From the IMG/VR virus record IMGVR_UViG_3300045988_183245: 64,000 nt of DNA. One strand, 5' to 3'. The notes beneath the pieces are model-generated. The model made no database searches, was not told the DNA's origin, and saw nothing but the letters and a program-made list of their open reading frames with translations. Of the stretch, positions 22,290 through 55,146 are shown piece by piece. Made by a program: the position numbers and the translations under genes. The DNA is from a virus. Positions within the stretch are counted from its first letter, which is position 1. Each line of letters opens with the position of its first letter.

Positions 22290-23695
22290 ATAAAAATTGT
22301 GCCCTGACGGCATCTGAATTGGATGCTGCCGGGGCATTTTGTTTGTTAAGGAGAATTTGGGGCTATTCAACTTTTTCCGGGGGTCTGAATAACTCATGAG
22401 CACAAAAGTCCATAAAGGAGGTGAGCCACTTTGAAAGTACATAAAGGCTATAAATTTCGGCTAGAGCCAACAGAAGAACAGAAAGTCAAAATCAATAAAA
22501 CGCTCGGCTGCTGCCGTTTTGTATATAACTCTATGCTAGATAGGCGTATAAAAGCTTATCAACGGCGCGGTGAAAGTATGAGCTATATTGATACACAAAA
22601 TCTGCTTCCTCAGATGAAAACTTATCTTCCTTGGCTTGCTGAAGTAGATAGTCAAGCACTCAAATATAGCTGTCGTCAGTTAAATAATGCCTATAAAGGC
22701 TTTTTCGAAGACGGTAAAGGGTTCCCCCAATTCAAACGAAAACGGGGAGAAGAAAGCTATACAACTACAAAAGCAAAAAGCATTAAAGTTGACGATAAGT
22801 ACATTCAGCTTCCGACACTTGGGAAGATGCGTTATCGTAAGAGTCGCAACATTGAGGGACGCATCTGTAAGGCAACAATCCGTCGCTCAGCAAGCGGCAA
22901 ATACTATGTAAGTATTCTTTGCGAAGTAGAAGTAATGCCGCTTCCGGTTAAAGATACCGTCATCGGTTTAGATGTTGGCATCAAATCTTTTGCTGTTGAC
23001 AGCAATGGAAAAGAATATCCAAACAATAAATATCTTCAGAAAGCGGAAGCTAAACTAAAGCGTGAGCAGAAAAAGCTGTCACGCAAAAAGAAAGGTTCTG
23101 CCAACTGGGAGAAGCAACGTATCAAGGTAGCTTGCTGCCACGAAAAAGTGACCAATAAGCGAAAAGATGCCCTACACAAGTTGTCATCTACACTGGTGAA
23201 AGAAAACCAAATCATCTGTGTAGAAGACCTCAATGTAAATGGTATGGTTCGCAATCATAACCTTGCTAAAAGTATTTCCGATGTTTCTTGGGGAGAGTTC
23301 TTCCGACAACTTGATTATAAATCCAGTTGGGCAGGAAGAGTAGTTGTAAAAATACCAACCTTCTATCCAAGCAGCCAGACCTGCTCTTGCTGCGGCTACC
23401 AAAACAAAGAGGTAAAAAACCTCAATGTTCGGCATTGGGTCTGTCCGAAATGTAACACATCACACGATAGGGATAAAAATGCAGCAGAAAACATTCTAAA
23501 GAAAGGAATGGACATGCTGGCTACGCCAGCCGCCTCATAACCACAGGCGAACAGTACGGTCAGGACGACCGAATCTTAAAGTCTGTGGAGAGCGAGCCTC
23601 TATCAAGAGCTGCGGCTTGCGGTAAGCTCGCTCTATGAAGCAGAAATCCATACTGAGTAACGGGGCAATCCGTGAAAAGTTGGAAGTCCGAATTT
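22290..23695 (+). mobile_element. IS200/IS605-family tnpB-only element (IS1341-like) inserted between cas7 and the helicase gene
   Basis: An imperfect LE-type hairpin gacggcatc-tgaattg-gatgctgcc lies at about 22300-22335. An intact tnpB follows, then a structured 3' non-coding region (candidate omega-RNA) at 23541-23690. Confidence 0.6.
22431..23540 (+). CDS. tnpB: TnpB (IS605 OrfB family, RuvC-like nuclease with zinc finger)
   Basis: GLDVGIK (RuvC-I), ICVEDLN (RuvC-II), CSCCGY...CPKCN zinc finger, and [10 protein letters not shown] (RuvC-III). Confidence 0.85.
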
Positions 23696-34869: not shown

Positions 34870-37035
34870 GAAACCCACTGCGTGAGCGGTGGGAGGAATT
34901 GGCGCATGAGTTTTCAAGAATGATGAATGTGTACAATCTGTAAATAAGAAAGCTACTTGATTTCTTTTTGCATCAAAAAATATTATAATACCGATATAAT
35001 CAATCAAAGAAAGGAGGGCTATTATGGCTTTCGGAAACAAGAATAGCACGCCATCGTTTGCGTTGACTCTTTCCATGAAGGTCAGCAAACAGGATGAAAT
35101 TTTTCTTTCAAAAAAGTTTCGCATCGGATGTACGGTTTACAACCAAATGGTTACGAAAACCACAAAAATGTGGCATCAGCTGCGCAAAACACGTGAATAT
35201 AAAAACCTTATAAAAGCCATAAAAGTCGCTCCCGCCAACAGAGATGAACGGAAAGCACTTTTGGTGCAGCGTTCCAATCTGATTAAGCAAGCGGGCTTTT
35301 CTGAGGGTGCGTTCCACAAGTTGGTTGTGCCCTACCAGAAAGCGTACAACGTAAATTGCGATGTCGCTCAAAAAGTTGCGTCCGCCGTCTGGAAAGCGTG
35401 GGATGACTTCTTTTATGGAAAAGGAAAGACCGTACACTATAAAAAGTTGGACGATTTTGTGACCCTTTCCGGAAAGAAAAACAACAGCGGTATATTCTTT
35501 CGCCCGGCAAACCATACGGTGAGTTCGATGGAATCCGCTAAGCGAAAAGCGAAAAACTCTATCGAGAAAAAATACTTCGATGCGTACAGAAAACCCGACG
35601 CTAAAAAAGACGAAGAAGTAGTTCTTCCCGATGAAGTAAAAGCGCAAATGGACAAAGAGGTTGCCGATGCCACGGCGAAAATCAAACCGTATATCGGAGA
35701 AGGTAATCTGCGTATCATTTACGAGAAACACGAATTCCTTGTCAAAGTGCGCAACCCCGATACTCAAACTGGATGGTATCAACAGGAAGCGCTCAAATGC
35801 GGTGTGAAGTATTGCCGGATTGTTCGCTCATGGGTCGGCACCAAATGGAAGTATTACGCTCAACTTGTTTTGGAAGGCTATCCGCCCATCAAATGCGACA
35901 GTAACGGGGTCATAAAACACCCTGTTAAGCAGGGCCGCATTGGTATAGATATCGGCACACAGACTATCACGTTTTGCGGTAAAGATGTTTGCGACCTTCG
36001 TGTACTTGCACCGTCTGCCATAGCGGAAGCTCGCAATGGTCTTACCAAGGAAATCGCTCGCATTATGCGGCAAATGGACCGTTCGCGCCGTGCGATGAAT
36101 CCGCAATACTTTAACAAAAACGGAACCATCAAACGGCTAAAACGCAAGAACGGATATAAGCAAATTCGTCATTGGAACTATAGCAAAAACTATTATCGGC
36201 TGCTGTACAGGCTGCGGAATTTGAACCGCAAGCTTGCTGCCGTACGCAAGGCGGAGCATTATATTCTCGCCAACGAATTGCTGACATACGGCAACGAATT
36301 CGTAGTTGAAGATATGAACTACAAAGCCTTGCAGAAGCGCAGCAAGAAAACGAAAACCAACCCCAAAACCGGTAGAGCGCATTCCAAAAAGCGGTTTGGC
36401 AAATCTATAGGACGCTGCGCTCCAGCTTTGTTTATCACCATTTTGGGGCAAAAAGCAAGTCGTTGCGGAGGCAGTGTTATCAAGGTCAGTACCTTTGAAA
36501 CAAAAGCTTCGCAGTTTGACCATACCGACGATAGTTTTACCAAGAAAAAATTGTCCCAGCGTTTTGCTAAACTTTCTGACGGAACCGTTGTCCAAAGAGA
36601 TTTGTATTCCGCATTCCTTTTATTACATCTTAGGAAGAACCTTCAATCCTATAACAAGAAAACCATTAAAAAAGATTTCCCGCAGTTTAAGATGCTGCAC
36701 GACAAAACAAAAGAACGCTTGCAAAACAGCCACGAGTGGCTGCCTTGTAGCGTTGGCTTCTAAAGCACCTATAATTTAAGGGGGTTCGACGTAGCCCCAT
36801 TGATTGCCTTGAAGTGCCGCTTTCAGTAGCACTTGATAGGTGAAACCCTTGTCAAGGGGATATCTACACTTTTTATGCTGGCTCTTCGGGCATTTTGCCC
36901 TGCCTTTAAGCTTCGCTTTGGGTAGTAAGTACACTGGTCTATCGAAAGATAGTGTATCTGGCAGCTTTACGCTGTTGGAAAACCCTGTAACTGCATTGCG
37001 TCAGCATAGAATCCCACTCCGTGAGGGGTGGGAGT
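34870..37035 (+). mobile_element. IS200/IS605-family tnpB-only element
   Basis: Flanking hairpins cccactgcgtgagcggtggg (34874-34893) and cccactccgtgaggggtggg (37013-37032); the internal tnpB-like gene is intact. Confidence 0.6.
35024..36763 (+). CDS. tnpB: TnpB-like RuvC-fold protein lacking the canonical zinc finger (579 aa)
   Basis: GIDIGTQT (RuvC-I), VEDMNYKAL (RuvC-II), and QRDLYSAFLL in place of DRDvNAAiNI. No CxxC...CxxC. It is the intact paralog of the frameshifted copy at 9405-11151. Confidence 0.65.
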   Translation: MAFGNKNSTPSFALTLSMKVSKQDEIFLSKKFRIGCTVYNQMVTKTTKMWHQLRKTREYKNLIKAIKVAPANRDERKALLVQRSNLIKQAGFSEGAFHKLVVPYQKAYNVNCDVAQKVASAVWKAWDDFFYGKGKTVHYKKLDDFVTLSGKKNNSGIFFRPANHTVSSMESAKRKAKNSIEKKYFDAYRKPDAKKDEEVVLPDEVKAQMDKEVADATAKIKPYIGEGNLRIIYEKHEFLVKVRNPDTQTGWYQQEALKCGVKYCRIVRSWVGTKWKYYAQLVLEGYPPIKCDSNGVIKHPVKQGRIGIDIGTQTITFCGKDVCDLRVLAPSAIAEARNGLTKEIARIMRQMDRSRRAMNPQYFNKNGTIKRLKRKNGYKQIRHWNYSKNYYRLLYRLRNLNRKLAAVRKAEHYILANELLTYGNEFVVEDMNYKALQKRSKKTKTNPKTGRAHSKKRFGKSIGRCAPALFITILGQKASRCGGSVIKVSTFETKASQFDHTDDSFTKKKLSQRFAKLSDGTVVQRDLYSAFLLLHLRKNLQSYNKKTIKKDFPQFKMLHDKTKERLQNSHEWLPCSVGF

Positions 37036-40834: not shown

Positions 40835-41788
40835 ATGGCTGCATCAAAGAAAGATGTTGCGAAGCAGCAGGTCAAAGAAGACCGCGAAAAGGTTCGGGAA
40901 ATGTATCTTTCTGGCAAAACTGTCAAGGAAATCGCCAAGGAAACGTATTTTTCAAGCTCTTATTGCTATGCCATGGTGAGAGACCTAGCAAAAGAAAAGA
41001 ATCTTGCAAAGAAAGCAAAAAGAGCACCTCTCGACGAAGCTATGATTCAAGATGCGAAAGCCGGGATGACGGTTGCTGAAATCGCAAAGAAGCATGGCGT
41101 GACCTATCAGCAGTGCTACTATACTGTTTCTGAATACGCTCAAGCTACGATTAAGAAGAACAAGAAAAAGCAGTCTGCTGCCACGAAAGTTCGCAATGCG
41201 GCTATGTTGGAAGATGCGAAAGCCGGAATGACTGATAAGGAAATCGCCAAAAAATACTTTTTGTCTCGAAGCAGTGTCCGTACCGTCCTTGCAGGGCATT
41301 TACATACAAATTCCAAAAAGTTGGATGAAAGGCGCAAGGCAATTCTTGCGGATTATGAGGCAGGAACGTCCTCAAAAGACATCTGTGAGAAATACGGTAT
41401 TTCAAAATCCACTCTTTACAAGGACATGCGCCAAATTGGAAAAACCTGTCAGGAATACTATCACAAGGCGCTGAAAGACAAGACCAATCAAAGGAATTCC
41501 GATATTCGAAGCAAAATCGAAAGAGGGGTCTCGGTCAGCACTATTGCCAAAGAATACGGAATCTCTAAAACGGCGATTTATGAAACGTTTCATCAGGAAA
41601 ATGTCAGAGCTGGAATTTTACAGAAACGCGGCCGTCCGCGAAAAAACACGGAACGTAATGCACTGATTGCTAAACGCCACAGGGAAGGCGAGAAGGTGCA
41701 GGCGCTTGCCACTGAATATAATCTCTCTGTTTCGACGGTAAACACTATTTGCAGTAGAAACAAAAATCAGAATATTGCATCACATTAA
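40835..41788 (+). CDS. tandem-HTH repeat protein (six units)
   Basis: Six copies of the A.AGMT..EIAKK(Y/H)G.S...(V/Y)Y repeat; RBS gaggaataa. Confidence 0.6.
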   Translation: MAASKKDVAKQQVKEDREKVREMYLSGKTVKEIAKETYFSSSYCYAMVRDLAKEKNLAKKAKRAPLDEAMIQDAKAGMTVAEIAKKHGVTYQQCYYTVSEYAQATIKKNKKKQSAATKVRNAAMLEDAKAGMTDKEIAKKYFLSRSSVRTVLAGHLHTNSKKLDERRKAILADYEAGTSSKDICEKYGISKSTLYKDMRQIGKTCQEYYHKALKDKTNQRNSDIRSKIERGVSVSTIAKEYGISKTAIYETFHQENVRAGILQKRGRPRKNTERNALIAKRHREGEKVQALATEYNLSVSTVNTICSRNKNQNIASH

Positions 41789-41834
41789 CAGGCTGCCATT
41801 TGGCGGCCTTTTCTTTTTTGGAGGAAATAATAAC

Positions 41835-42749
41835 ATGACAGACGACGTACGAAATCTGATTCGATTTGTAGTGGATGGCGATATTCGAAACGCGCAGACT
41901 CAGTGCCGAATCATGCTTGAAAAGAATGTACCCGAAAAGGACGCCAGGTTCAAAGAAAACGAACTCAGAAAGTTGAATCTTCTGAAGCCGGAACTGATTC
42001 AGCTGCCCACCAACCTGGAAAACCTCTTGATTGCGGAGGATGCCACGAATTTCCCTGAGAGCCGGTTCCTGCTCCGCGAGGAGGAAGAAACAGTCATCAA
42101 CAAGCTCTTGGCCACCAGAAAAGCAGCTTTAGCCATCAAGGAGCTTGGCATCCACTATACTTGCTCTTTGCTTTTGACGGGCCTTCCTGGTGTTGGTAAG
42201 ACTGAATTGGCCCGCTACATTGCACACAAGGCGAATTTACCGTTTGTTTTCCTGAAATTCTCTGGCCTTGTCAATTCTGCTCTTGGCCGGACACAGCAGA
42301 ACATCGGCAGAGTGTTCGATTACGCAAAGCGCACGCCTTGTGTTCTTTGTGTTGATGAAATTGATGCCATCGGAATGTGCCGTGGCAGCCGCGATGATGT
42401 CGCTGAAATGAGCCGTGTCACCATCGCATTGATGCAGGAACTTGACCGGCTCCCGAATGACGTCATTCTCATTGGCACTACAAACCGCGTCGATAACCTT
42501 GACGAAGCCCTCATTCGCCGATTCACTTTCAAACACCGCGTCAAACCTTTAGGCGACGATGACATGAAAGAACTGTGCAAGAAGTTCCTTGCTTCGGCAG
42601 ACTATCCCTTCACGGAATCCGAACTCGACGAACTCTGCCATTCGCTGCGTGAGCAGCGGACTGCCAGCGCCGTTGTCAATGCCTGTACAGAACGTATCGT
42701 TGCACATATCGTATCGCAGCTGCCTGAAAATTCGGCAGATGCCGTGTAA
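41835..42749 (+). CDS. classical AAA+ ATPase
   Basis: Walker A LLTGLPGVGKTELAR, Walker B VLCVDEIDAIG, and sensor-1/SRH GTTNRVDNLDEALIRRF. Confidence 0.7.
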   Translation: MTDDVRNLIRFVVDGDIRNAQTQCRIMLEKNVPEKDARFKENELRKLNLLKPELIQLPTNLENLLIAEDATNFPESRFLLREEEETVINKLLATRKAALAIKELGIHYTCSLLLTGLPGVGKTELARYIAHKANLPFVFLKFSGLVNSALGRTQQNIGRVFDYAKRTPCVLCVDEIDAIGMCRGSRDDVAEMSRVTIALMQELDRLPNDVILIGTTNRVDNLDEALIRRFTFKHRVKPLGDDDMKELCKKFLASADYPFTESELDELCHSLREQRTASAVVNACTERIVAHIVSQLPENSADAV

Positions 42750-43639: not shown

Positions 43640-45018
43640 AAAACCCACGACTTTAGTCGTGGGATGAAAGGCGTTAAGAACGAATCAATTCACGCTGCAT
43701 ATCCGCAAGATGGACAGCATTTTTTTGCTGTCAAAGCGTGCGAATTGCGTACCATAGATAGTAGATTCTAAAGAAAAGGAGGCTACTACTCATGCGTCTG
43801 GTTGTTAAAACTTACAAGTATAAGCTGTACAACAGTAAAAAGAACAGATACCTGGTGCGCCAGATTGAACTTGCCTCCGAGATTTGGAATTTTTGCATTG
43901 CTATGCGGCGTATGTACTATTTGGTCTATGGCAAAACGCTTAAAGCCAATGATTTGAAAAAGTACATTGCTAAAATCTGCAAGCGCCGCAAGTGGGCACA
44001 TTGACATAATCTCGGCAGCCAGGCGATTCAGGATGTGGTGGAACGGGTTGACCGTGCCTATAAAGCCTATTTCGATAATAAGAAAAAGGAGCATCCCAAA
44101 AAGAAGTCCCTACCAAAATTCAAGAAGCGTGAACTGTACAAAAGTTTTACACTCAAGCAAGCAGGCTACAAGTTTGAAGGAAAAGGCCGCATTACCATCA
44201 ATGGCAAAAGGTATCGGTATTTTGATTCTCGGCCATTGAAAGGTAAAGTGAAAACCTTAACCGTCAAGCGCGACAATTTGGGCGACATCTATATTTTTGC
44301 CGTCACGCAGGAAGAATACAATGAAGTCCTTCCACGAGCAGGTAAAGCTGTCGGGATGGATTTCGGCTTAAAGCATTTCCTCAACCTGGATGACGGCAGT
44401 GTGATAGATTCTCCTCAATGGTATAAAGCCTCCCTGAAAGAGCTGAAGACCATACAACGTCACATTTCACGCTGCAAAGCAGGCAGTAATAATCGCAAGA
44501 AAGCTATCAAGGAGTTAAACCGCATCTATCGAAAGATGTGTAATCAACGCACCGACTGGTTCTTCAAGACTGCCTATCAGCTGATTGGAGATTATGCCAT
44601 CATCTGCATTGAAGACTTAAATCTTGCGGGGATGCAAAAACTCTGGGGACGCAAAATCAACGATATTGCGTTCGGTGAGTTTGTTCAAATTCTCGAGTGG
44701 GCGGCATCCAACTGCGGCACAGAGATTGTGAAAATCGACCGCTTTGCGCCATCCAGCAAGTGCTGCAGCCGCTGTGGGTATATCTATACGAAGCTCACGC
44801 TCAAGCAGCGTGAATGGGATTGCCCTTCCTGCGGCACACACCATGAGAGAGACGTCAATGCAGCTATCAATATATGCCGCATGGGATTAGTCCAAATGGG
44901 CTACCCTGCGTAAAAATACTCTCACGGATGGGGCACCATGCCGTTACCGAGAGGCGTAAGACTGGGTCAGCCAGCGGCCTCGTTGAAGTAGAATCCCACG
45001 ATTTTAATCGTGGGAGTG
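43640..45018 (+). mobile_element. IS200/IS605-family tnpB-only element with an inactivated tnpB
   Basis: Perfect palindrome cccacgactttagtcgtggg at 43644-43663 and cccacgattttaatcgtggg at 44995-45014, bracketing the tnpB. Confidence 0.65.
43792..44913 (+). pseudogene. tnpB: tnpB interrupted by an in-frame TGA (70-aa and 292-aa ORFs share one frame)
   Basis: Both ORFs are in frame 1 and are separated only by TGA at 44002-44004. The C-terminus has GMDFGLK, ICIEDLN, CSRCGY...CPSCG and ERDVNAAINI. Confidence 0.7.
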
Positions 45019-45432: not shown

Positions 45433-46245
45433 TTGCGCCCATCATACTGGGCAAGCGTATCTGGCGGAAAAGATAGCCTGTATATGCTCAATTACATACT
45501 GCACAATCTGGACAGATACCCGCTTGACGGCGTGGTTCACTTTGAACTCGAAATCGACTACCCGTTTATACATAACGTTATCGACTATATGGAAACGGAG
45601 TGCAAGCGAGCTGGCATCCAATTTGTGCGAATCAAGCCGAGGAAAACGTGGGAAGAATTGTATGATAAATGCGGTTTCCCAACAAGAAAAGTAAGATGGT
45701 GTAACGGTCACTATAAACTTGATGCAAAGCGGCAACTATCCGAATGGCTGAACGAAGTCGGTTTTTATGTAGTAAATTACATAGGCTATTGTGCCGACGA
45801 AGAACGCCGTTTCAACAAGCGGTTGAGTGCCAAAAAGTTAGAGATATACCCTCTCGCAGAAAACGGCATTAACGAAGATGTGATTTTGGAATGGGCAAAG
45901 ACACAGCCTATTTTCAACAACTACTACAAAACCAACAAGCGCTGCGGTTGTATGTATTGCCCGATGTCCTCGTTTCTTAACTTTGCCTATCTCTATAAAT
46001 ACTACCCCGAAAATTTCCGGTATATGCTTGAAAAAATGCGGGAAACGGAAGAATTGAGAGAGAAAGAGCTTGGTAGACCGTTCTCTGTGATTTCATCGAA
46101 TCCCAAATATAATGCGGATTACTTGGAACACATCGTCAAAACGAAATGGCTCAAAAAGCTCAACGAAATGGAGGTAACCAACAATGACTATGTCGATGCG
46201 TATTGCGTCGGTGTGGATGTGGATGGTCACACCACTGTCCACTAG
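45433..46245 (+). CDS. PAPS reductase / PP-loop family protein (phage-type)
   Basis: N-terminal SGGKDS PP-loop motif and a C-terminal Cys cluster CGCMYCP. Confidence 0.65.
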   Translation: MRPSYWASVSGGKDSLYMLNYILHNLDRYPLDGVVHFELEIDYPFIHNVIDYMETECKRAGIQFVRIKPRKTWEELYDKCGFPTRKVRWCNGHYKLDAKRQLSEWLNEVGFYVVNYIGYCADEERRFNKRLSAKKLEIYPLAENGINEDVILEWAKTQPIFNNYYKTNKRCGCMYCPMSSFLNFAYLYKYYPENFRYMLEKMRETEELREKELGRPFSVISSNPKYNADYLEHIVKTKWLKKLNEMEVTNNDYVDAYCVGVDVDGHTTVH

Positions 46246-46391: not shown

Positions 46392-47285
46392 GTGACTTCT
46401 TACGATGCAATTCTTACGAACATTCGGAAAGCCCAGCAAGAGAAGCAAATGCAAAGCATTGAGAAGGAGCAGTCGCTCCGACATCGAGAAGTATTCTCCG
46501 GAGGTCATAATGCGGTAAGAAGCAAAAAGCAAACGGATGCACTTCTCAACGAGGATGTCTCGAAGCTCTCTAATGCCGATATTGAGAAGGTCCTCACTTT
46601 TATCCGCACAAACGCCGAGACTTTCCGCCAAAAGCTTTGTAAGCTGTACATAACCCAGCAGAAAAAGCAAATCGACGTCAAAAAAACGATTGAGAAATCC
46701 GTCCAGTGTGATGGCGAGATTGCACGACTGTACTACAAAAAGCCGATAAAGTCCAAAGCAAATGTCGTGATGCTGGCGGATATTTCCGGGTCTTGCCGCG
46801 CTATGACTTCTCTCGCTCTGACATATATGGGTTTGATGCGGGAAGTTTTTCCCGGCGGCTGCCACCTGTTCGTTTTTGTGAATCACTTAGTTCCTGTTGA
46901 CCGTTATTTCTCAAACGAGAATGTAACGGCTGCTGTGGAAAGTATCAACAAGAATGTCCCCAGCCGAGGTATCTACTCAAACTACGGTATGCCTCTCAAA
47001 GAACTGCGCTACGATAATACCGGAATCATCAATAAGGATACTACTATCGTTATGCTGGGTGACTGTCGAAACAACAGGAACTATTCCGGTGTGGAAGAAG
47101 TAGAATGGCTTTCTAAGCGAGCATCCAACTTCTTCGTTCTGAACCCTGAACCGCGGGACGAATGGGGACAGGGTGATTCCATTGCCGACCTGTACGCGAA
47201 AAGTGGCGCTGTGGTTTCCATGGTAGGTTCGGCTAAAGATTTGCTGACTTTCCTGCAATCTGCCGGAACCACAAGGCATTTTTGA
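46392..47285 (+). CDS. vWA domain protein (CoxE-like)
   Basis: MIDAS motif VVMLADISGSC (DxSxS), plus downstream T and D residues in a VWA-like arrangement. Confidence 0.5.
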   Translation: MTSYDAILTNIRKAQQEKQMQSIEKEQSLRHREVFSGGHNAVRSKKQTDALLNEDVSKLSNADIEKVLTFIRTNAETFRQKLCKLYITQQKKQIDVKKTIEKSVQCDGEIARLYYKKPIKSKANVVMLADISGSCRAMTSLALTYMGLMREVFPGGCHLFVFVNHLVPVDRYFSNENVTAAVESINKNVPSRGIYSNYGMPLKELRYDNTGIINKDTTIVMLGDCRNNRNYSGVEEVEWLSKRASNFFVLNPEPRDEWGQGDSIADLYAKSGAVVSMVGSAKDLLTFLQSAGTTRHF

Positions 47286-47379
47286 TGCGCTTGCCCCAAC
47301 CACTAGATATAGTGGTATCTTAATGTTTGTTTACAATTTAGACACTATATATTGTGTCTTTTCATTGACCGGATACCAC

Positions 47380-47430
47380 ATATATGGTATAATACAATTG
47401 TTCTCAGGAAGAGGAACGGCTCCTGAGACA
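47380..47430 (+). promoter_or_regulatory. extended -10 promoter (TGGTATAAT) plus an 8-bp-stem hairpin, upstream of the tRNA island leader
   Basis: tggtataat at about 47385, then tctcagga-agaggaacggc-tcctgaga. Confidence 0.4.
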
Positions 47431-47638
47431 TCAAGGTTTTCCTTTCCCCAATCTTGGTCGCATGGCTTCATTTGAGCTGACACAGGTGAAGCGTGAAAAT
47501 CATCCGTTTCATAGTAATATCCTTCCTTTCTTTGGCGCGGGTAACTCCGCGCCAGCCGTCCAAGCAAACAGCCTCCACGCGGCGGACGGTGGGCAACAGA
47601 TGTTTCCGTGTTCCGGGCATCTGGCTAATGTTTGTATT

Positions 47639-47714
47639 TGCTGGTTTAGCTCAGCTGGTAGAGCAACTGACCTGTAATCAGTCGGTCATCGGTTCAAGTC
47701 CGATTTCCAGCTCC
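47639..47714 (+). tRNA. tRNA, anticodon loop CCTGTAA (putative TGT / Thr); atypical
   Basis: Cloverleaf with D-arm gctcagctggtagagc and T-arm atcgg-ttcaagt-ccgat, CCA encoded. There are two U-U mismatches at the base of the acceptor stem, and C33. Confidence 0.5.
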
Positions 47715-48540
47715 AGACGCTATCCGTTGGATGTATCGAAATCACATGATACGATGCTATACACAACATCTGGCGGACAGCATGCCACCCATTAAGGCGG
47801 CCTCCTCGTGGCGGGTGGCGGACAGCGGCTCTTGCGGCTGCTGACGAATGTCTTAGAAGCATGCAAACGTACGAGCATCCCCGTCAAGTCGGGGCGCATC
47901 CAGACGCGACACAGCCGTAAAGGCGAGATTGCTGCACGGCAACTGGTAAGTTTCGCCGCAGTCTCACACACAGCCCAACGACAACCGTTAACCCGATTTG
48001 ACAGGGAATCAACGACAGGGCTCAAAATTTGAAGTTGACCAACACCCAAGCGCTTTCTTGGATTCTCGCGTATCGTCAACGATGAGGTTCGCAAGATTGT
48101 CAGGTGGTGTGAAGATGACATCCGGGGATGACGACCTACTAAACGGATGTCATGGCGGGGCTAAGTGAGGGTTCACCCGCAATCTTATGCAGGTATCGTA
48201 TAACGGCTAATACTCCGCCCCTCCAAGGCGGAGACGCGGGCTCGACCCCCGCTACTTGCTCCACACGTCGCCGCCACCGTACGCCACGACATTAAATTTG
48301 GCGAGCATGGTCCACATGTGGTCCGCTGTCCGAATGCCAATGGACAGCCTATAAAAGAATAGGCAAACAGGTGCTGTGCCTGAGAGTATCCGAGAGTCCC
48401 GGTGTCAGTCGCGAATGAGGCCGGAAAACGGCGGGGAGGGTACTATACAGAATCCGTCGGCGTGGCTGCTGAATGGTACTGGAAGAAAGGGTTGGCTGCC
48501 CTGATTGCGGGATGATAACCAGTATAAAACATCCTAACAT

Positions 48541-48616
48541 GCCTGATTAGCTCAGTTGGTAGAGCAGCGCATTCGTAACGCGCAGGTCGGCAGTTCGAAC
48601 CTGCCATCAAGCCCCA
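48541..48616 (+). tRNA. tRNA-Thr (CGT)
   Basis: Acceptor gcctgat / atcaagc, D-arm gctcagttggtagagc, anticodon loop ttCGTaa, T-arm ggcag-ttcgaac-ctgcc, CCA encoded. Confidence 0.6.
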
Positions 48617-48654
48617 TCACCAAATTAAGCGATAATAGGAAGGAGATGAATTCT

Positions 48655-49038
48655 ATGGAACAGGCAATTATCAATGTTGAAGGTACGACTACCATAGAAA
48701 CCGCTGCAGCAGCCAAAAAGCTGATTGGGATGCTTGGCAATCAGAACGTCCGCGCCATCTCGGTCAATCGTGTGAACGATAAGAGCGATGAGGTCATTGT
48801 CGAACTTGATTTCGTGCCTGGCTTGGCACCGCATCTGCACGGCTTTACACTTCAGGTTAATGGCTTGACCTGTGGTTATGCTGGTACTGGTCCTTCCAAT
48901 CTGTATGAAGTCCTGCAGGCGGCTGGCGTGAGTGAAGCTCAGGTAGCACGCGAGGACATCACTCAGAAGAGCACAAAAACCATTCCTCTGCGCCTGGAAC
49001 GCGCCGTGACTCAGTACGGCGACTTCCAATTTGCGTAA
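48655..49038 (+). CDS. hypothetical protein (127 aa)
   Basis: RBS aggaagga upstream of MEQAIINVEG. The longer ORF would overlap the tRNA. A hairpin ggcgggcttaacccgcc follows the stop. Confidence 0.5.
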   Translation: MEQAIINVEGTTTIETAAAAKKLIGMLGNQNVRAISVNRVNDKSDEVIVELDFVPGLAPHLHGFTLQVNGLTCGYAGTGPSNLYEVLQAAGVSEAQVAREDITQKSTKTIPLRLERAVTQYGDFQFA

Positions 49039-49068
49039 CGCTATTTGGCGGGCTTAACCCGCCATCAT

Positions 49069-49144
49069 GGAGGGATAGCTTAGCTGGATAAAGCACCTGC
49101 CGCAAAGCAGGGTATCGATGGTTCGAGGCCATCTCCCTTCTCCA
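49069..49144 (+). tRNA. tRNA-like gene with an aberrant anticodon arm (possible pseudo-tRNA)
   Basis: Acceptor, D and T arms are good (ggaggga / tcccttc; gatgg-ttcgagg-ccatc; CCA). The anticodon arm only pairs as cctgc-cgcaaa-gcagg, giving a 6-nt loop. Confidence 0.35.
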
Positions 49145-49506
49145 TCCAGACACCCTTTCGCTTCCTTCCGCCAAAGGTATCTGGGGTATTGTACTGCATT
49201 GCGTGTAGTACGGCCAATCAGGCGCGGAACTCCGAAACCATACCACGAAGAATTTTATCCTCTCCGCGCAGCATGGACATGCGATTTTACGGGGATAAAT
49301 TCAAACCGAAATTGTGTCGAGTGGCGAAGACGGTTGCGGCACTGGCGAAGCACATATCTGCTTCGTCAACCATCCATGAGAAAGCCTCCACGCGGCGGAT
49401 GGTGGGCAACGCAGCAAAGCTGCGGCTGATTTCTCCTTAAATCGGTATCTGAATAAATGCAGATAGATAATCACAAAAAAATTAAAAGAACAAAGGAGTA
49501 CACAGC

Positions 49507-50640
49507 ATGAGCAATCAGAAAATCATGAAAGCAATCGCAGGGATTGCAGCAGCCGGTATGATGGCAACTTGTCTGCCTGTCGCAGCGTTCGCAGCCACCG
49601 GTGACACCTACCATTTCTCTTTCAGCAATGGTTCTTCCCAGGACCTGGCTCCGGGCGGTTCTATGACGTTCCCGGCAAGTCAGTATGACTACGGCTACTG
49701 GATTACCCTGCAAGGCCATGGCGGGTATACCTACAACTACTATCCCGGCGACACTCTGCCGTACGATGCAGTTGACCAGTGGTTCACCACTGACGGCATC
49801 ACTTCCTGCTATGCGGCTGAGGGCAATCCGCGTTCCATCACCATCAACTACCAGATTGACGGCAACACGGTGCTGACCGAGACTGACACCGCCACTTTCC
49901 CGGGCAGTGTTGATGGTCAGAGTGTTGAAGCCTGGACCACGGATTCCGGTGATACTTACACCGCATCCAGCAAGAGCCTGAACCATGACCGCCTGTTCTA
50001 CTACCTGGGCGACGACATCCACGACAACGTCCTGACCCTGAAAGCCACTTCTGCATCCACTCCCGACGACGGCAAGGATGACAACAAGGGCGATGACAAG
50101 GGTGATGTTACCAAACCCGACGATAAGGACGACAACACTGGTGACAATACCGGTGACAACGGCACCACCACTCCTGATGACAAGGGCGACGTTGTGGCTC
50201 CTGATAAGGGCAACACCGGCAAAGACAACACTTCTACCGGCTCCAATAAGGGTAACGGTACTACCACCACTACTCCGACCGCTCCTCGCAAAAACGTTGA
50301 GGTTTCTGAACATGGTGAAATTGCCGCCGCTATTGCCAATGGCACCTGGGGCAATGAGTACACCGTCTGTACCAGCTGTGGCTATCACAACTGGACCCGC
50401 AAGGGTAACGTTTACGTCTGTGACCATTGTGGTCATGAAGTCCTGACTGTTAAGGGCGCTGATGGCGTCAAGGGCTATGCTGGTACTCTGGCTGGCAACG
50501 AGCCCCAGTACGCTTCTACCTCTGAAGCTCAGGCTGCTGCTGAAAAGCGTGAAGCCGCTTATGCCGCTTCCATCGCTGCTCTGCAGGCACAGGTTGCCGC
50601 TCGTGAAGCTGCTTATGCCGCTTCCCTGGGCATCCACTAA
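49507..50640 (+). CDS. secreted Thr/Asp/Gly-rich repeat protein with a C-terminal zinc-ribbon-like CxxC..CxxC
   Basis: Signal peptide MKAIAGIAAAGMMATCLPVAAFAA; repeats D(D)KG(D/N)..; CTSCGYHNW...CDHCGHE. The antisense 388-aa ORF is rejected. Confidence 0.6.
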   Translation: MSNQKIMKAIAGIAAAGMMATCLPVAAFAATGDTYHFSFSNGSSQDLAPGGSMTFPASQYDYGYWITLQGHGGYTYNYYPGDTLPYDAVDQWFTTDGITSCYAAEGNPRSITINYQIDGNTVLTETDTATFPGSVDGQSVEAWTTDSGDTYTASSKSLNHDRLFYYLGDDIHDNVLTLKATSASTPDDGKDDNKGDDKGDVTKPDDKDDNTGDNTGDNGTTTPDDKGDVVAPDKGNTGKDNTSTGSNKGNGTTTTTPTAPRKNVEVSEHGEIAAAIANGTWGNEYTVCTSCGYHNWTRKGNVYVCDHCGHEVLTVKGADGVKGYAGTLAGNEPQYASTSEAQAAAEKREAAYAASIAALQAQVAAREAAYAASLGIH

Positions 50641-50723
50641 TTTGCCATCCTCTAACTAACGGTAATCGATAGTTTTTTCTCCTTGCTGTGGGGCGGGATT
50701 TCGGTCCCGCCCCATCCTTTTGT

Positions 50724-50811
50724 GGTCAGATGTCCGAGTGGTTTAAGGAACTGGTCTTGAAAACCAGCGACGCCGCAAACGTCCGTGGGTTCAAATCCCA
50801 CTCTGACCGCC
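50724..50811 (+). tRNA. tRNA-Ser (TGA)
   Basis: Class II tRNA: acceptor ggtcaga / tctgacc, anticodon loop ctTGAaa, long variable arm, T-arm gtggg-ttcaaat-cccac, CCA encoded. A terminator gccggggtttcccggcTTTTT follows. Confidence 0.7.
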
Positions 50812-51199
50812 AAATTTTTGCCGGGGTTTCCCGGCTTTTTGTTTTTGTGAGCAACACAAGGCAACAGATTGCTATATCGAATAGGGTTATGTATACAACT
50901 GGAGCGTCAAAAGGAAAAGCACGAGGACTCCCGTTCTGGAAACAACGAATGGTTCTGCTGAAATCAAGGTGCCAATCGACCTGGCTTTGGCTGACTATGA
51001 GTCCAGGATGGCTGAGCCTTTAAGCGAGTTGTGTTCGTGTGAGGACATACCGTTCTCGAATGCAATAGCGCGGATTGCTGCTTGGAGACCGGTCAAACAA
51101 TGAGTGCGGGCCTGCCATTATTTTTACGAAAAGCCTTGACTTTGACTTTTACATATTGTATAATTAAGACGCTGAATTTGATGAAAGGAAAATTGCACG

Positions 51200-51868: not shown

Positions 51869-53200
51869 GTGGAAATCACTTCCAGCTATGCTGTGGAAAT
51901 CAAAAAGCAGAAAATGTTCGACAATACTATAAAGATTTATCGCGAAGCCGTTTCTTTCTTGATTGGTTGTTTTAACAAAGAATGGGATTCTATTCAAAAA
52001 GTAGAGGGTGCCAAATCTCGAAAGAGTTTTGCCGAGAAGTTAATTCATACTACAAAATACAGCACTGCTAAATATGATTTCGATGCCAAGTTTTATAAGT
52101 TCCCTAGTTACCTGCGCAGAGCGGCTATTCAAGCAGCACTCGGCTCTGTAAGCAGCTACTACAGTAGCCATAAGAACTGGGAAGCAAACGGCAAGGTTGA
52201 CAGGGAGCCAAAACTTCAATGCGATAGATTTTGCTTCCCGGCTTTTTATAAGACCGTTATGTATGAGGAAAGCAACAAACCAAACCAGTGCTATCTGAAG
52301 CTGTATAAAAACAATGACTGGGTTTGGATTCCTATTGCAATGCGTGCCACCGATGTCAAATACATCACGAAATACTGGTCACATTGCGAAAAGAGTGCTC
52401 CCTCCCTCGAAAAGAAGTATGGAAAATATTTTCTTCGCTTCGCTTTCGTGGAGAAGGTAGAACTCTCTGAAACTGAAATTCAAGACAGGCGTATCTGCGC
52501 TGTAGACCTTGGCCTCAATACTGACGCCGTGTGCAGCATCATGACTGCCGATGGAACTGTCCTTGCAAGAAAATTTATCAATTTTGCAAGTGAAAAAGAC
52601 CATCTGTATCATGTGCTCAACCGTATTAAGCGTAAGCAAAGAGAACATGGACCTAAGAGTGCTGCTGCTATGTGGCGTTACGCCAAAGCCTTGAATAACG
52701 ATATAGCGAAAAAGGTTGCTGCTGCGATTACTGAATTTGCTGTGCTTTATTCTGTAGATGTGATTGTTTTTGAACATTTGTCATTTACAGGCAAAAAGCA
52801 CGGTGGCAGTAAGGCACAGAAGCTGTCGATGTGGAAGCGTAATTCTATACAGGATTATGTGGAACACAAGGCGCACCGCTGCGGTATCCGGATTTCGCGT
52901 ATCTGTGCTTGGGGGACAAGCAAACTCGCCTTTGATGGCAGTGGTGCTCTCAAGCGTGATGAAACCAATCGTGCCCTTGCAACGTTTGCAAGCGGCAAAC
53001 AATACAACTGCGACCTAAGTGCGAGCTACAATATTGGCGCTCGCTACTTTGTCAGAGAGTTGCTAAAACCCTTGCCAGCGATGGTAAGGTCTCAGCTTTC
53101 GGCTAATGTTCCGGATGTTGAGCGTAGAATCCAAGTTACACTTGCCACGCTTAAAGTTCTGTATCCTGAGCTTAAAAAACTCAGTACACAGGCAGCGTAA
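51869..53200 (+). CDS. tnpB: TnpB-like RuvC-fold protein with a degenerate zinc finger (443 aa)
   Basis: AVDLGLNT (RuvC-I), VIVFEHL (RuvC-II), WGTSK...CDLSASYNIGARYF (RuvC-III analogue). There is no CxxC pair. Confidence 0.6.
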   Translation: MEITSSYAVEIKKQKMFDNTIKIYREAVSFLIGCFNKEWDSIQKVEGAKSRKSFAEKLIHTTKYSTAKYDFDAKFYKFPSYLRRAAIQAALGSVSSYYSSHKNWEANGKVDREPKLQCDRFCFPAFYKTVMYEESNKPNQCYLKLYKNNDWVWIPIAMRATDVKYITKYWSHCEKSAPSLEKKYGKYFLRFAFVEKVELSETEIQDRRICAVDLGLNTDAVCSIMTADGTVLARKFINFASEKDHLYHVLNRIKRKQREHGPKSAAAMWRYAKALNNDIAKKVAAAITEFAVLYSVDVIVFEHLSFTGKKHGGSKAQKLSMWKRNSIQDYVEHKAHRCGIRISRICAWGTSKLAFDGSGALKRDETNRALATFASGKQYNCDLSASYNIGARYFVRELLKPLPAMVRSQLSANVPDVERRIQVTLATLKVLYPELKKLSTQAA

Positions 53201-53464
53201 GATGTAGGCTAACTGTGACAATTAGCTTTCTTGCGGTGAGTTTGTTCTTCGGGACTTGCTTGCTGAGGGATTGCTGTACCATTTCGTTAGCAAGTTCCTC
53301 TCCTTAAAAGAAGGGAAGCCCGCGACTTTAGTCGTGGGAGGATTCACCCTGACAACGGTTGTTCGACTCGACCATTCTCGACCAACGCTCACTTTCATGC
53401 GCATCGGAAGTGAGATTCCTCAAAGCTGTGTTCCCATAAGCAAGGCACGGAAGATGCGCGACAA

Positions 53465-53541
53465 GTGCTCGTAACTCAATCGGTAGAGTACCCGACTTTT
53501 AATCGGGGTGTTCGGGATTCGATTTCCCGCGAGCGCACCAT
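53465..53541 (+). tRNA. tRNA-Lys (TTT)
   Basis: Anticodon arm cccga-ctTTTaa-tcggg, T-arm cggga-ttcgatt-tcccg, CCA encoded. Confidence 0.7.
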
Positions 53542-53571
53542 GCCCGGCAGAGCATTATCTGCCACTTTTGT

Positions 53572-53647
53572 GGGTGTATAGCTCAGTAGGCAGAGCGGCG
53601 GACCGTTAATCCGTTTGTCGCAGGTTCAAATCCTGCTACGCCCGCCA
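53572..53647 (+). tRNA. tRNA-Asn (GTT)
   Basis: Anticodon loop ccGTTaa, D-arm gctcagtaggcagagc, CCA encoded. Confidence 0.7.
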
Positions 53648-53650
53648 TAA

Positions 53651-53728
53651 GCTCCTCTGGTGAAATTGGCAGACACAGTGCGCTCAAACCGCACCGTTTT
53701 GAGGGTTCGAATCCCTCGGGGAGTACCA
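53651..53728 (+). tRNA. atypical tRNA, anticodon CAA (Leu-like D-arm but short variable arm)
   Basis: D-arm tggtgaaattggcagacac resembles tRNA-Leu; anticodon arm gtgcg-ctCAAac-cgcac. The variable region is only about 6 nt, and there is no class II extra arm. Confidence 0.45.
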
Positions 53729-53757
53729 TGTCCGACAGTACAACAACTGCCATTTAT

Positions 53758-53833
53758 GGGTTGTTAGCTCAGCTGGTAGAGCAACGGACCGTTAATCCGT
53801 GGGCCGCAGGTTCGAATCCTGCACAACCTGCCA
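53758..53833 (+). tRNA. tRNA-Asn (GTT), second copy
   Basis: gctcagctggtagagc D-arm, loop ccGTTaa, CCA encoded. Confidence 0.7.
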
Positions 53834-53836
53834 TAT

Positions 53837-53911
53837 GCTCCAGTGGCGAAACTGGCAAACGCGGCGGATTTAAGCTCCGCTTATTTCTGAGTTCGACTCT
53901 CAGCTGGAGCA
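53837..53911 (+). tRNA. atypical tRNA, anticodon TAA (Leu-like, short variable arm, no encoded CCA)
   Basis: Acceptor gctccag / ctggagc, anticodon arm gcgga-ttTAAgc-tccgc, T-arm ctgag-ttcgact-ctcag. The variable region is about 6 nt. Confidence 0.45.
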
Positions 53912-53918
53912 TCCATAT

Positions 53919-53984
53919 AGGGGTGTAGCTCAATTGGTAGAGCAGCGGTCTCCAAAACCGCTTGTTGCATGTTCGAGTCGTGTT
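53919..53984 (+). tRNA. tRNA-Trp (CCA)
   Basis: Anticodon arm gcggt-ctCCAaa-accgc, D-arm gctcaattggtagagc, CCA encoded. A terminator agccgtcc...gggcggcTTTTTT follows at 54009-54042. Confidence 0.65.
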
Positions 53985-54359
53985 ACCCCTGCCACAATAA
54001 GAAAAGCCGTCCTTTTGAGGGCGGCTTTTTTGCTTTGGAGAGTATACAGACCAAAAACTAAACTACAAGTTGATTGCAAATGTGCAAAAACATGCTATAA
54101 TAATATCAGAACGAAACGAAAGGAGATACCCCAAAATGCTGTGCAACACTGTTAATGTAATGTCGTATGAGTATAGTTATGAATCTGAGTTCAGCTCTTA
54201 TGAACGCAGTTTTATTTCTCATACTCCTCGACAGGCAAAAACAGACCATGTACAGATGCGGTGCGTCTTCTAAGCGATAACTGCATTTTCACACGCTGCT
54301 TGTCGAGATTTCGGCAGGCAGCTTTTTTGTTGCCTGCAATACAGAAAGGCAGCGAAAAA

Positions 54360-54581
54360 ATGAACGTTCCAACCATCGATATCCAGCAGACAGGTGCCAA
54401 TATCAAGGCCCTGCGAAAAGCAGCAGGCATCAAGGTGAAGGATGTGGCAGACACGCTCGGTGTGTCTCCGCAGGCGGTTGCTAAATGGCAAGCCGGAACA
54501 GCGCTTCCCACCATCGATAACCTTGTGATATTAGCAGCGATGCTCGATACGAAAATTGATGACATCCTTGTCATCGCATAA
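54360..54581 (+). CDS. XRE-family HTH transcriptional regulator (73 aa)
   Basis: IKALRKAAGIKVKDVADTLGVSPQAVAKWQAG is a classic Cro/C1-type HTH. Confidence 0.65.
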   Translation: MNVPTIDIQQTGANIKALRKAAGIKVKDVADTLGVSPQAVAKWQAGTALPTIDNLVILAAMLDTKIDDILVIA

Positions 54582-54610
54582 ACCCTCGCCGCAGGATTGC
54601 GGCTTTATAT

Positions 54611-54690
54611 GGCCCGTTGGACGAATTGGTAGAGTTGCCGCCCTTTCACGGCGGAGATTATTGTGGGTTCGAAACCCACACGGGTCACCA
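54611..54690 (+). tRNA. tRNA-Glu (TTC)
   Basis: Anticodon arm ccgcc-ctTTCac-ggcgg, T-arm gtggg-ttcgaaa-cccac, CCA encoded. Confidence 0.65.
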
Positions 54691-54693
54691 TCT

Positions 54694-54770
54694 GCTTCTG
54701 TAGCTCAGTTGGTAGAGCAGCGGTCTGAAGAACCGCGTGTCGCTGGTTCGATTCCAGCCGGGAGCACCAT
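54694..54770 (+). tRNA. tRNA-Phe (GAA)
   Basis: D-arm gctcagttggtagagc, anticodon arm gcggt-ctGAAga-accgc, CCA encoded. Confidence 0.7.
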
Positions 54771-54772
54771 AT

Positions 54773-54857
54773 GTGCCGGTATGCAAGTGGTTAAAGCAAA
54801 CGGTCTGTAAAACCGCTCCGTTACGGTTCGCTGGTTCGAATCCAGCCCGGCACACCA
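54773..54857 (+). tRNA. tRNA-Tyr (GTA)
   Basis: Class II tRNA with anticodon loop ctGTAaa and a long variable arm; acceptor gtgccgg / ccggcac, CCA encoded. Confidence 0.7.
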
Positions 54858-54860
54858 TAA

Positions 54861-54934
54861 GGCCCCTTCGACAAGTTGGTCCAAGTCGCCAGCCTCTCAA
54901 GCTGGAGTCGGCAGTTCGAGTCTGCCAGGGGTCA
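54861..54934 (+). tRNA. tRNA, anticodon CTC (Glu-like); no encoded CCA
   Basis: Anticodon arm ccagc-ctCTCaa-gctgg, T-arm ggcag-ttcgagt-ctgcc, acceptor ggcccct / aggggtc. Confidence 0.5.
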
Positions 54935-54965
54935 TACAAGCACCTATGTCAAAAAGGTGCATCAT

Positions 54966-55055
54966 GCAGAGGTCGCCTAACGGTAGGGCAGCAGCTTGCT
55001 AAGCTGCCGTCGCGGAAATCGCGGCATGTGAGTTCGAATCTCACCCTCTGCGCCA
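54966..55055 (+). tRNA. tRNA-Ser (GCT)
   Basis: Class II tRNA: anticodon arm cagc-ttGCTaa-gctg, long variable arm, acceptor gcagagg / cctctgc, CCA encoded. Confidence 0.7.
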
Positions 55056-55058
55056 TCT

Positions 55059-55146
55059 GCTTGCTTGTTCGAGTGGTTGATGAAATCGGTCCAGAAAACC
55101 GACGATGGGAGACTGTCCGAAGGTTCGAATCCTTCAGCAAGCGCCA
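55059..55146 (+). tRNA. class II tRNA, anticodon uncertain (loop CCAGAAA)
   Basis: Acceptor gcttgct / agcaagc, long variable arm, T-arm gaagg-ttcgaat-ccttc, CCA encoded. The anticodon loop has C33, so the isotype cannot be assigned. A terminator gccctca...tgagggcTTTTT follows at 55151-55195. Confidence 0.5.

Follow-up and report, generated by a model that had tools for sequence, protein, structure and literature searches.

What does a phage make from a GC-rich block that lies among its tRNA genes and contains only short reading frames? The question is raised by IMG/VR record IMGVR_UViG_3300045988_183245, a viral stretch of 64,000 nucleotides (nt; hereafter the window, to whose numbering all coordinates refer) in which ARAGORN detects 17 tRNA genes. 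A first-pass annotation had pointed to a GC-rich, non-coding block of about 830 bp between two tRNA genes of a prophage-like region, with no open reading frame (ORF) above 110 amino acids, as a candidate large structured RNA of the ROOL/GOLLD type. The composition was well described, since positions 47716-48540 have a GC content of 0.547 against 0.464 window-wide, at about the 99th percentile among 825-nt windows. The longest ORF is indeed a minus-strand frame of 109 amino acids (47792-48121), and short ORFs overlap each other on both strands. The two flanking tRNA genes were also correctly placed. The block is nevertheless not a single spacer, being interrupted by a tRNA-Gly(UCC) gene that had been overlooked and by a hepatitis delta virus (HDV)-like ribozyme. 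Conserved structured non-coding RNA does lie beside the phage tRNAs, not as one RNA of about 830 nt but as two, of 332 and 277 nt, named here seg1 and seg2. Both are non-coding, maintain a secondary structure on the plus strand and match no described RNA family. We consider them new candidate RNA families in the known setting of large RNAs beside phage tRNAs, and their punctuation by a ribozyme and tRNAs is unusual.

Relatives of the block

The neighbouring VWA/CoxE-like protein (46392-47285) led to 34 IMG/VR loci, at 86-99% identity and on contigs of up to 389 kb. As these loci were fetched via a neighbouring protein they represent an unbiased sample, and 33 of them were long enough for presence counts. 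The 3' domain of seg1 was present in all 33, full-length seg1 in 32 and seg2 in 32. Motif scans added more viral contigs, and also contigs of 150-370 kb from human-gut metagenomes. The public collections were searched by exact motifs and the covariance models were run on the fetched loci; more distant members of the families may exist beyond the reach of exact motifs. The seg1 motif had no match in 185,579 reference genomes, so that no reference bacterial genome among them carries it, and GenBank records of isolated phages had only tRNAs in common with the block. A degenerate motif of the P4 loop (see below) returned 18 viral contigs, all of them chance matches as judged by the covariance model of the seg1 3' domain, R1. 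Since the relatives lie on large viral and metagenomic contigs (150-390 kb) and the motif is missing from the reference bacterial genomes, the window looks like a part of the genome of an uncultured human-gut jumbo phage clade and not like a demonstrable prophage, at variance with the first-pass annotation.

Covariation supports two structured RNAs

The alignment of seg1 comprised 24 non-redundant sequences, down to 77% identity, and its RNAalifold consensus contains 79 pairs, with standard pairs in 98.8% of the cells. Eighteen pairs changed on both sides, compared with 2-6 when the 3' partners were slid by 1-3 columns, and the covariation score was 0.186 vs 0.045-0.062 in these slid controls. 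G-U pairs make up 9.2% of the paired cells of seg1 (9-13% across both segments). As they would be A-C mismatches on the minus strand, it is the plus strand, the same as that of the tRNAs, that folds.

Analysing the consensus along its length, the 8-bp helix of the 5' domain (columns 71-78/104-111) is 97% paired with one compensatory pair, and the helix of the central variable hairpin (columns 135-141/148-154) has two; in haplotype groups B and C a different hairpin replaces the latter. The 3' domain opens with the conserved single strand UUGAAGUUGACC, followed by P1 (48042-48046/48106-48110), which encloses a long irregular hairpin. P3 (48115-48124/48144-48153) is formed by AUGACAUCCG/CGGAUGUCAU in the window and by AUGAUGUUCG/CGAGCAUCAU in group B, and P4 pairs GCGGG (48155-48159) with CCCGC (48176-48180) around an almost invariant loop of 16 nt. 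The best-supported helices of seg1 are P1 with its enclosed hairpin, P3, the variable hairpin at about 47990 and the 8-bp helix of the 5' domain.

Some candidate features of seg1 were discarded. The long-range stem CCCCGUCAAGUCGGG/CCCGAUUUGACAGGG seen in the minimum free energy (MFE) fold of the window is not conserved in groups B and C. An anti-Shine-Dalgarno-like ACCUCCU occupies the P3 loop of most haplotypes, but it reads ACCUACU in the window and is not conserved. In GAAGUUGACCA (48031-48041) there is a likeness to the way E. coli RNase P RNA begins, which we regard as a coincidence, no RNase P model being matched. The palindrome CGUACG occurs seven times in the window, twice within the block (47868-47873 and 48278-48283). 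The seg1 copy lies in a 10-nt loop whose hairpin is invariant, and such loops can mediate loop-loop dimerisation; a kissing-loop dimer is unsupported here, as the seg2 copy lies partly in a stem and is not invariant, and the invariant seg1 loop gives no covariation.

The second RNA is structured to a similar degree. In an alignment of 34 sequences seg2 shows 64 pairs, with 99.0% of the cells paired, 13 pairs changed on both sides (1-4 in slid controls) and a covariation score of 0.177 vs about 0.05. Its 3' end forms an H-type pseudoknot, in which UACUGG (48477-48482) paired with CCAGUA (48519-48524) crosses GGGAUG (48509-48514) paired with CAUCCU (48530-48535). Both helices covary, and the pseudoknot ends 5 nt before tRNA-Thr(CGU). 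Covariation in related genomes, which the first-pass annotation had named as a check, is thus far above the slid controls for both segments. The possibility that seg2 is a paralog of seg1 was discarded, since model R1 gives no match in seg2 at E<=10; nor does it match elsewhere in the window.

Coding potential and known RNA families

Neither segment carries a codon signature, in agreement with the non-coding assignment first made. The variable columns are distributed over the three codon positions as 38/39/34 in seg1 and 30/41/37 in seg2, without 3-nt periodicity, and the indels of both alignments are mostly of 1-2 nt. The longest open frame varies in strand, frame and length (41-102 codons) between relatives, and the six longest ORFs of the block have no Pfam or PHROG match.

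Rfam 15 was searched with the whole window at gathering score, and with 47000-51000, 47716-48188 and 48264-48540 at E<=10, using relaxed filters for the segments. Only the HDV-like ribozyme and tRNA were matched, and no ROOL, GOLLD, HEARO, RNase P, transfer-messenger RNA (tmRNA), group I or II intron, riboswitch or T-box model had a match in 47716-48540 at E<=10. The covariance model of ROOL (RF03087, a multi-pseudoknot core of about 580 nt) was unmatched in the window at gathering score and in the segments at E<=10, and that of GOLLD (RF01998, with a universally conserved 3' domain) was unmatched in the segments at E<=10. The ROOL/GOLLD assignment proposed at first is therefore not sustained. 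The low matches obtained (microRNA, small nucleolar RNA, DUF805b, plastid untranslated regions) are at chance level. With 80% thresholds ARAGORN found in seg1 and seg2 no further tRNA-like gene on the plus strand and no tmRNA. A TnpB/IscB omega-RNA or an IS605 miniature element was also discarded, since neither as nucleotides nor in translation does the block resemble three of the four tnpB genes of the window or the remaining sequence of the window; the nearest tnpB ends 2.8 kb upstream of the block. The first-pass annotation had counted the lack of an Rfam match, along with that of transcription, as a ground for refutation; the Rfam part of this rule would wrongly discard a genuine structured RNA.

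Table 1. Features of the block and of the transcription unit around it, with positions in the window.
Feature	Position	Strand	Basis and remarks
Sigma-70-type promoter	47365-47393	+	TTGACC-17-TATAAT with TG extension, 11/12 consensus; outside the block; presumed operon start
HDV-like ribozyme rz1	47555-47635	+	RF02682, 50 bits (gathering score 44)
tRNA-Thr(UGU)	47640-47715	+	ARAGORN; Rfam tRNA 59.2 bits; encoded CCA
3' trailer of tRNA-Thr(UGU), 68 nt	47716-47783	+	One long hairpin
HDV-like ribozyme rz2	47784-47856	+	RF02682 match
seg1, structured RNA, 332 nt	47857-48188	+	Covariation in relatives
seg1, 5' domain	47857-47965	+	Row of short hairpins and one 8-bp helix; almost invariant sequence
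seg1, central variable hairpin	47966-48026	+	Enclosed by AGCCC/GGGCU
seg1, 3' domain	48027-48188	+	Model R1, 162 positions; structure ends 8 nt before tRNA-Gly
tRNA-Gly(UCC)	48189-48263	+	ARAGORN; RF00005, 52 bits, E 1.7e-9 (gathering score 29)
seg2, structured RNA, 277 nt	48264-48540	+	Covariation in relatives; about 10 helices
tRNA-Thr(CGU)	48541-48616	+	ARAGORN; Rfam tRNA 56.6 bits
Third HDV-like ribozyme	49369-49436		RF02682, 41.7 bits

HDV-like ribozymes

The ribozyme within the block, rz2, matches RF02682 at 47784-47855 with 34.1 bits (E 1.1e-4, with the segment searched alone), below the Rfam gathering score of 44; the ribozymes at the corresponding site upstream of seg1 in relatives L013 and L020 reach 45.2 bits and are above it. 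We aligned 12 RF02682-type elements of the window and its relatives. In this family P1 is 100% paired, with five of its seven pairs compensatory, P3 is 100% paired and the P2 pseudoknot 85%; the pairings of P1, P2, P3 and P4 covary, with 15 pairs changed on both sides vs 2-6 in slid controls. The helices of rz2, P1 GCCACCC/GGGUGGC, P3 GCC/GGC and P2 UUAAGGC/GUCUUAG (P2 read off the sequence), fit the family fold, a nested double pseudoknot with P1-P4 in the canonical order. The catalytic cytosine of J4/2 is present, the C of the consensus GGCUAAG being aligned by cmscan to the C of GACGAA. By its structure we accept rz2 as an HDV-like ribozyme, for which self-cleavage is predicted 5' of G47784.

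In their survey of the HDV-like or theta ribozymes of gut phages, Kienbeck et al. 2024 (PMC10879173) describe as tRNA-associated those theta ribozymes with a cleavage site within +/-5 nt of a tRNA 3' end. rz2 resembles the published RF02682 ribozymes in its nested double pseudoknot and covarying family, and its host is likewise a gut phage rich in tRNAs. The predicted site (47783/47784) is 68 nt past the end of tRNA-Thr(UGU) at 47715 and outside that definition; unlike the theta ribozymes, rz2 lies directly upstream of a structured RNA and rz1 upstream of a tRNA 5' end. rz1 and rz2 belong to the class listed in the survey as 'non-tRNA-associated, function unknown'. The end of rz1 is 4 nt before the 5' end of tRNA-Thr(UGU), the reverse of the published arrangement of theta ribozymes, and RNase P would remove rz1 as a leader. 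The third ribozyme lies about 70 nt upstream of a 377-amino-acid ORF (49507-50640) within the tRNA operon.

Between tRNA-Thr(UGU) and rz2, the trailer hairpin has an MFE of -22.2 kcal/mol (z = -3.5 vs shuffles); its sequence is 97-100% identical among most group-A relatives and absent from groups B and C. In groups B and C about 115 nt separate the ribozyme from seg1.

Modularity and selection

In the relatives the ribozyme, seg1, tRNA-Gly and seg2 behave as separable modules, and seg1 and seg2 recombine independently and occur apart. In L127 a promoter-proximal leader, which keeps the promoter, is joined to the last 80 nt of seg1 (P3 and P4) and tRNA-Gly; in L159 tRNA-Thr is joined to seg1 from about 47993 onward; in L022 and L162 a ribozyme is fused to the middle of seg1. 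Furthermore, the 3' domain of seg1 exists as a divergent copy located 4 nt before tRNA-Pro(UGG) in L196 (520-685) and L213 (6110-6275). The P4 of this paralog is GUGGG...CCCAC instead of GCGGG...CCCGC, a compensatory change, and with the paralogs included such changes affect 23 of the domain's 37 pairs. Wherever model R1 matches there is one copy before tRNA-Gly, in addition to the two tRNA-Pro paralogs. The tRNA-Gly itself is kept and covaries among the relatives.

The two RNAs also differ in how they are constrained. Among the group-A loci identity is 99-100% for the ribozyme and seg1 but only 90-94% for the adjacent protein gene, which indicates constraint on seg1 at the level of sequence; seg2 ranges over 80-97%, and its drift to 80% with pairs kept indicates constraint mainly at the level of structure. 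Haplotypes of seg1 and seg2 are shuffled relative to each other among the group-A loci. The 99-100% identity of trailer, ribozyme and seg1 (47716-48188), set against that of the protein gene (46392-47285), together with the shuffled haplotypes suggests recombination or a recent sweep of the RNA module.

Transcription unit and proposed maturation

A terminator-like hairpin (47340-47359) is located just upstream of the promoter given in Table 1. The scan of the block revealed no promoter-like site above 9/12 and no terminator-like site inside; the next strong promoter is at 51136, and terminator-like hairpins are found downstream at 50688-50715 and 50820-50835. As a strong promoter precedes the block and no terminator interrupts it, the arrangement suggests one transcript bearing three ribozymes, four tRNAs or tRNA-like genes, seg1, seg2 and two ORFs.

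On the whole we lean towards the view that the block is the middle of an operon of tRNAs and non-coding RNAs, whose products are discrete stable phage RNAs acting in trans. The order would be promoter, leader, rz1, tRNA-Thr, trailer hairpin, rz2, seg1, tRNA-Gly, seg2, tRNA-Thr and further genes, and the long primary transcript would be cut into discrete RNAs without dedicated terminators. In this scheme rz2 would cleave at its own 5' edge (47783/47784), freeing seg1 from the upstream tRNA, and would stay on the 5' end of seg1 with the resulting 5'-OH buried in or capped by its compact fold. The host RNase P would then generate the 3' ends of seg1 and seg2 by cutting at the 5' ends of tRNA-Gly and tRNA-Thr(CGU). 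The 3' end of seg1 would lie 8 nt past the GC hairpin and that of seg2 5 nt past the pseudoknot, both of which structures would block 3' exonucleases, and the products would be two stable trans-acting phage RNAs. Given its recurrence before tRNA-Pro, the seg1 3' domain may in addition act in cis for the tRNA that follows it.

Several observations weigh against this proposal. The processing by ribozyme and RNase P is deduced from position only, and rz2 scores below the gathering threshold of its family. The 5' domain of seg1 is missing in L022, L159 and L127 and is not essential; nor is seg2, since L032 lacks the tRNA-Gly end, seg2 and tRNA-Thr(CGU). The thermodynamic z-scores are unremarkable (-2.2 for seg1, -0.8 for seg2). 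The homologs all belong to a single phage clade, in which there are about five haplotype groups, and therefore the independent compensatory events are modest in number, fewer than the cell counts suggest. Finally, both RNAs are formally 5' leaders of pre-tRNAs and could be discarded after processing.

Alternative explanations

This last point leads to the alternative that has to be taken most seriously, although we judge it rather unlikely, namely that seg1 and seg2 are mere pre-tRNA leaders or spacers, which insulate the tRNAs from misfolding or guide RNase E or RNase P and are then degraded. In its favour, 5-8 nt lie between the terminal structure of either segment and the following tRNA, and the sequence next to the tRNA is U/A-rich. 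Wherever the seg1 3' domain or its paralog occurs, a tRNA (Gly or Pro) follows directly, and all the deletion variants retain the 80-220 nt nearest to the tRNA. However, the other tRNAs of the phage stand 3-30 nt from one another and have no such leaders (53465-55146), and 277-332 nt with at least about 10 helices and a pseudoknot exceed the needs of insulation. The near invariance of the unpaired nucleotides of seg1, with the excess of its identity over that of the adjacent protein gene described above, also argues against a mere leader or spacer.

There are bolder forms of the cis and trans readings, to which we give little credence. The seg1 3' domain and its tRNA-Pro paralog might represent a new cis-acting RNA class devoted to the tRNA that follows, either as a sensor gating its synthesis or as a processing ribozyme, which with the HDV-like ribozymes would make an RNA-only cassette for tRNA production; or else seg1 and seg2 might be ornate RNAs that form RNA-only particles like ROOL and GOLLD.

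A related and still somewhat less probable explanation is that the 3' domain of seg1 is a riboswitch-like or attenuator-like cis sensor, with P4 and a U-rich tract acting as a conditional terminator that gates tRNA-Gly or, in the paralog, tRNA-Pro. As in riboswitch and T-box leaders, a structured domain with conserved unpaired nucleotides, aptamer-like, lies upstream, and in several haplotypes (L032, L194 and group D) the GC-rich P4 is followed by UUUUUCUCAU, UUUUU or UUUUUU, and in the paralog by AUUUUAUUA. The U-tract is however not conserved, the one of the window, AAUCUUAU, making a poor terminator, and the invariant 16-nt loop of P4 is unlike terminator loops; the terminator scan was empty here. 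No alternative anti-terminator pairing was found and no riboswitch or T-box model was matched. Unlike these leaders seg1 precedes a tRNA and not an mRNA, and riboswitches are not known to control tRNA genes.

A divergent ROOL or GOLLD, that is, one large ornate RNA with domains flanking an embedded tRNA, is very improbable. The genes of ROOL and GOLLD lie close to tRNA islands of phages; GOLLD has a variable 5' and a conserved 3' region, and its linker sometimes holds a tRNA (PMC12286853). The block shares this setting, with phage contigs and the 17 tRNA genes of the window, and a similar total size of about 700-830 nt. In spite of this, RF01998 and RF03087 are unmatched at E<=10 even with each segment alone and relaxed filters, and there is no detectable homology in sequence or structure. 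The polarity of conservation is opposite to that of GOLLD, the conserved part being here 5' (seg1) and the variable one 3' (seg2), and instead of one RNA of 580-800 nt there are two RNAs of 332 and 277 nt that recombine independently and occur apart.

That the block encodes small proteins, such as the product of the 109-amino-acid minus-strand ORF, is likewise very improbable: a minus-strand frame of about 100 codons does occur in roughly half of the seg1 variants, but the frame changes, no alignment is possible over the middle of the 'protein', L018, L013, L041 and others have the ORF split, it would overlap the ribozyme in antisense, and the coding tests above speak against it.

The surrounding RNA island

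The whole tRNA-operon region looks like an RNA island. In a tRNA-like gene at 49069-49144 the anticodon loop has 6 nt, CGCAAA (ARAGORN 'anticodon ca'; Rfam tRNA 46.4 bits). L025 and L127 carry this gene unchanged and L159 carries it with a single base altered; its position is taken by a normal tRNA-Ala(UGC) in groups B and C. More long non-coding stretches are found in the same operons, at 49145-49368 of the window, at 7557-8042 of L009 and at 5500-5943 and 6507-6962 of L213. In those of L009 and L213 there is a tRNA-like 3' module, not called by ARAGORN, with an acceptor UCUGGUG/CACCAGA and a T-arm that covaries between both loci. A few kb downstream of the block, relatives carry a tmRNA gene (tag DNNRYASPIAA; L009 12279-12678) and a HEARO (IscB-type) RNA (L025 10993-11251), neither of them in the window.

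Among the protein-coding genes, the 377-amino-acid ORF 49507-50640 has a signal peptide, a long low-complexity linker and a Zn-ribbon-like Cys cluster; the nearly full-length antisense ORF opposite it (49471-50637) is probably a shadow. Comparison with protein families and the PDB gave no informative match for this ORF or for the 130-amino-acid ORF 48646-49038. Immediately before the RNA operon lie genes for an AAA+ ATPase (41775-42749), a PAPS-reductase/PP-loop-like protein (45433-46245) and the VWA CoxE-like protein (46392-47285). The window also holds four TnpB/IS605-OrfB-like genes (22431-23540, 35024-36763, 44035-44913 and 51869-53200). The non-coding stretches after the tnpB genes probably hold guide (omega) RNAs, for instance 53201-53464 before tRNA-Lys; none of these stretches has a match at Rfam threshold.

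Discussion

The T4 RNAs RNAC and RNAD ('species 1 and 2') are encoded within the tRNA cluster of that phage and matured with the tRNAs, and are about 120-140 nt long. As small stable phage RNAs of the same setting they offer the closest functional analogy for non-coding RNAs punctuated by tRNAs; they differ from the RNAs described here by this small size and by having no ribozyme at their 5' end. A 3' end made by RNase P is familiar from mitochondrial tRNA punctuation and from MALAT1-mascRNA, in which the cut at a tRNA or tRNA-like structure makes the 3' end of the upstream RNA and a terminal structure protects it. Those systems are organellar or eukaryotic, while in the phage block the arrangement is proposed from position. 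The T4 RNAs still have no known function (PMC9697503).

Large RNAs beside phage tRNA islands, such as GOLLD, ROOL and T4 RNAC/RNAD, have been known for years, none with an assigned function, and the present locus adds to the same setting two unrelated RNA families supported by covariation. It also provides a plausible and testable scheme of maturation, in which an HDV-like ribozyme would form the 5' end and RNase P, acting at the next tRNA, the 3' end. In addition, it places the 'non-tRNA-associated' theta/HDV-like ribozymes, to which the 2024 survey assigned no role, in a concrete context. Natural deletion variants, together with the tRNA-Pro paralog, already show in outline what the RNAs can do without, and the phages that carry these RNAs are common in human-gut metagenomes.

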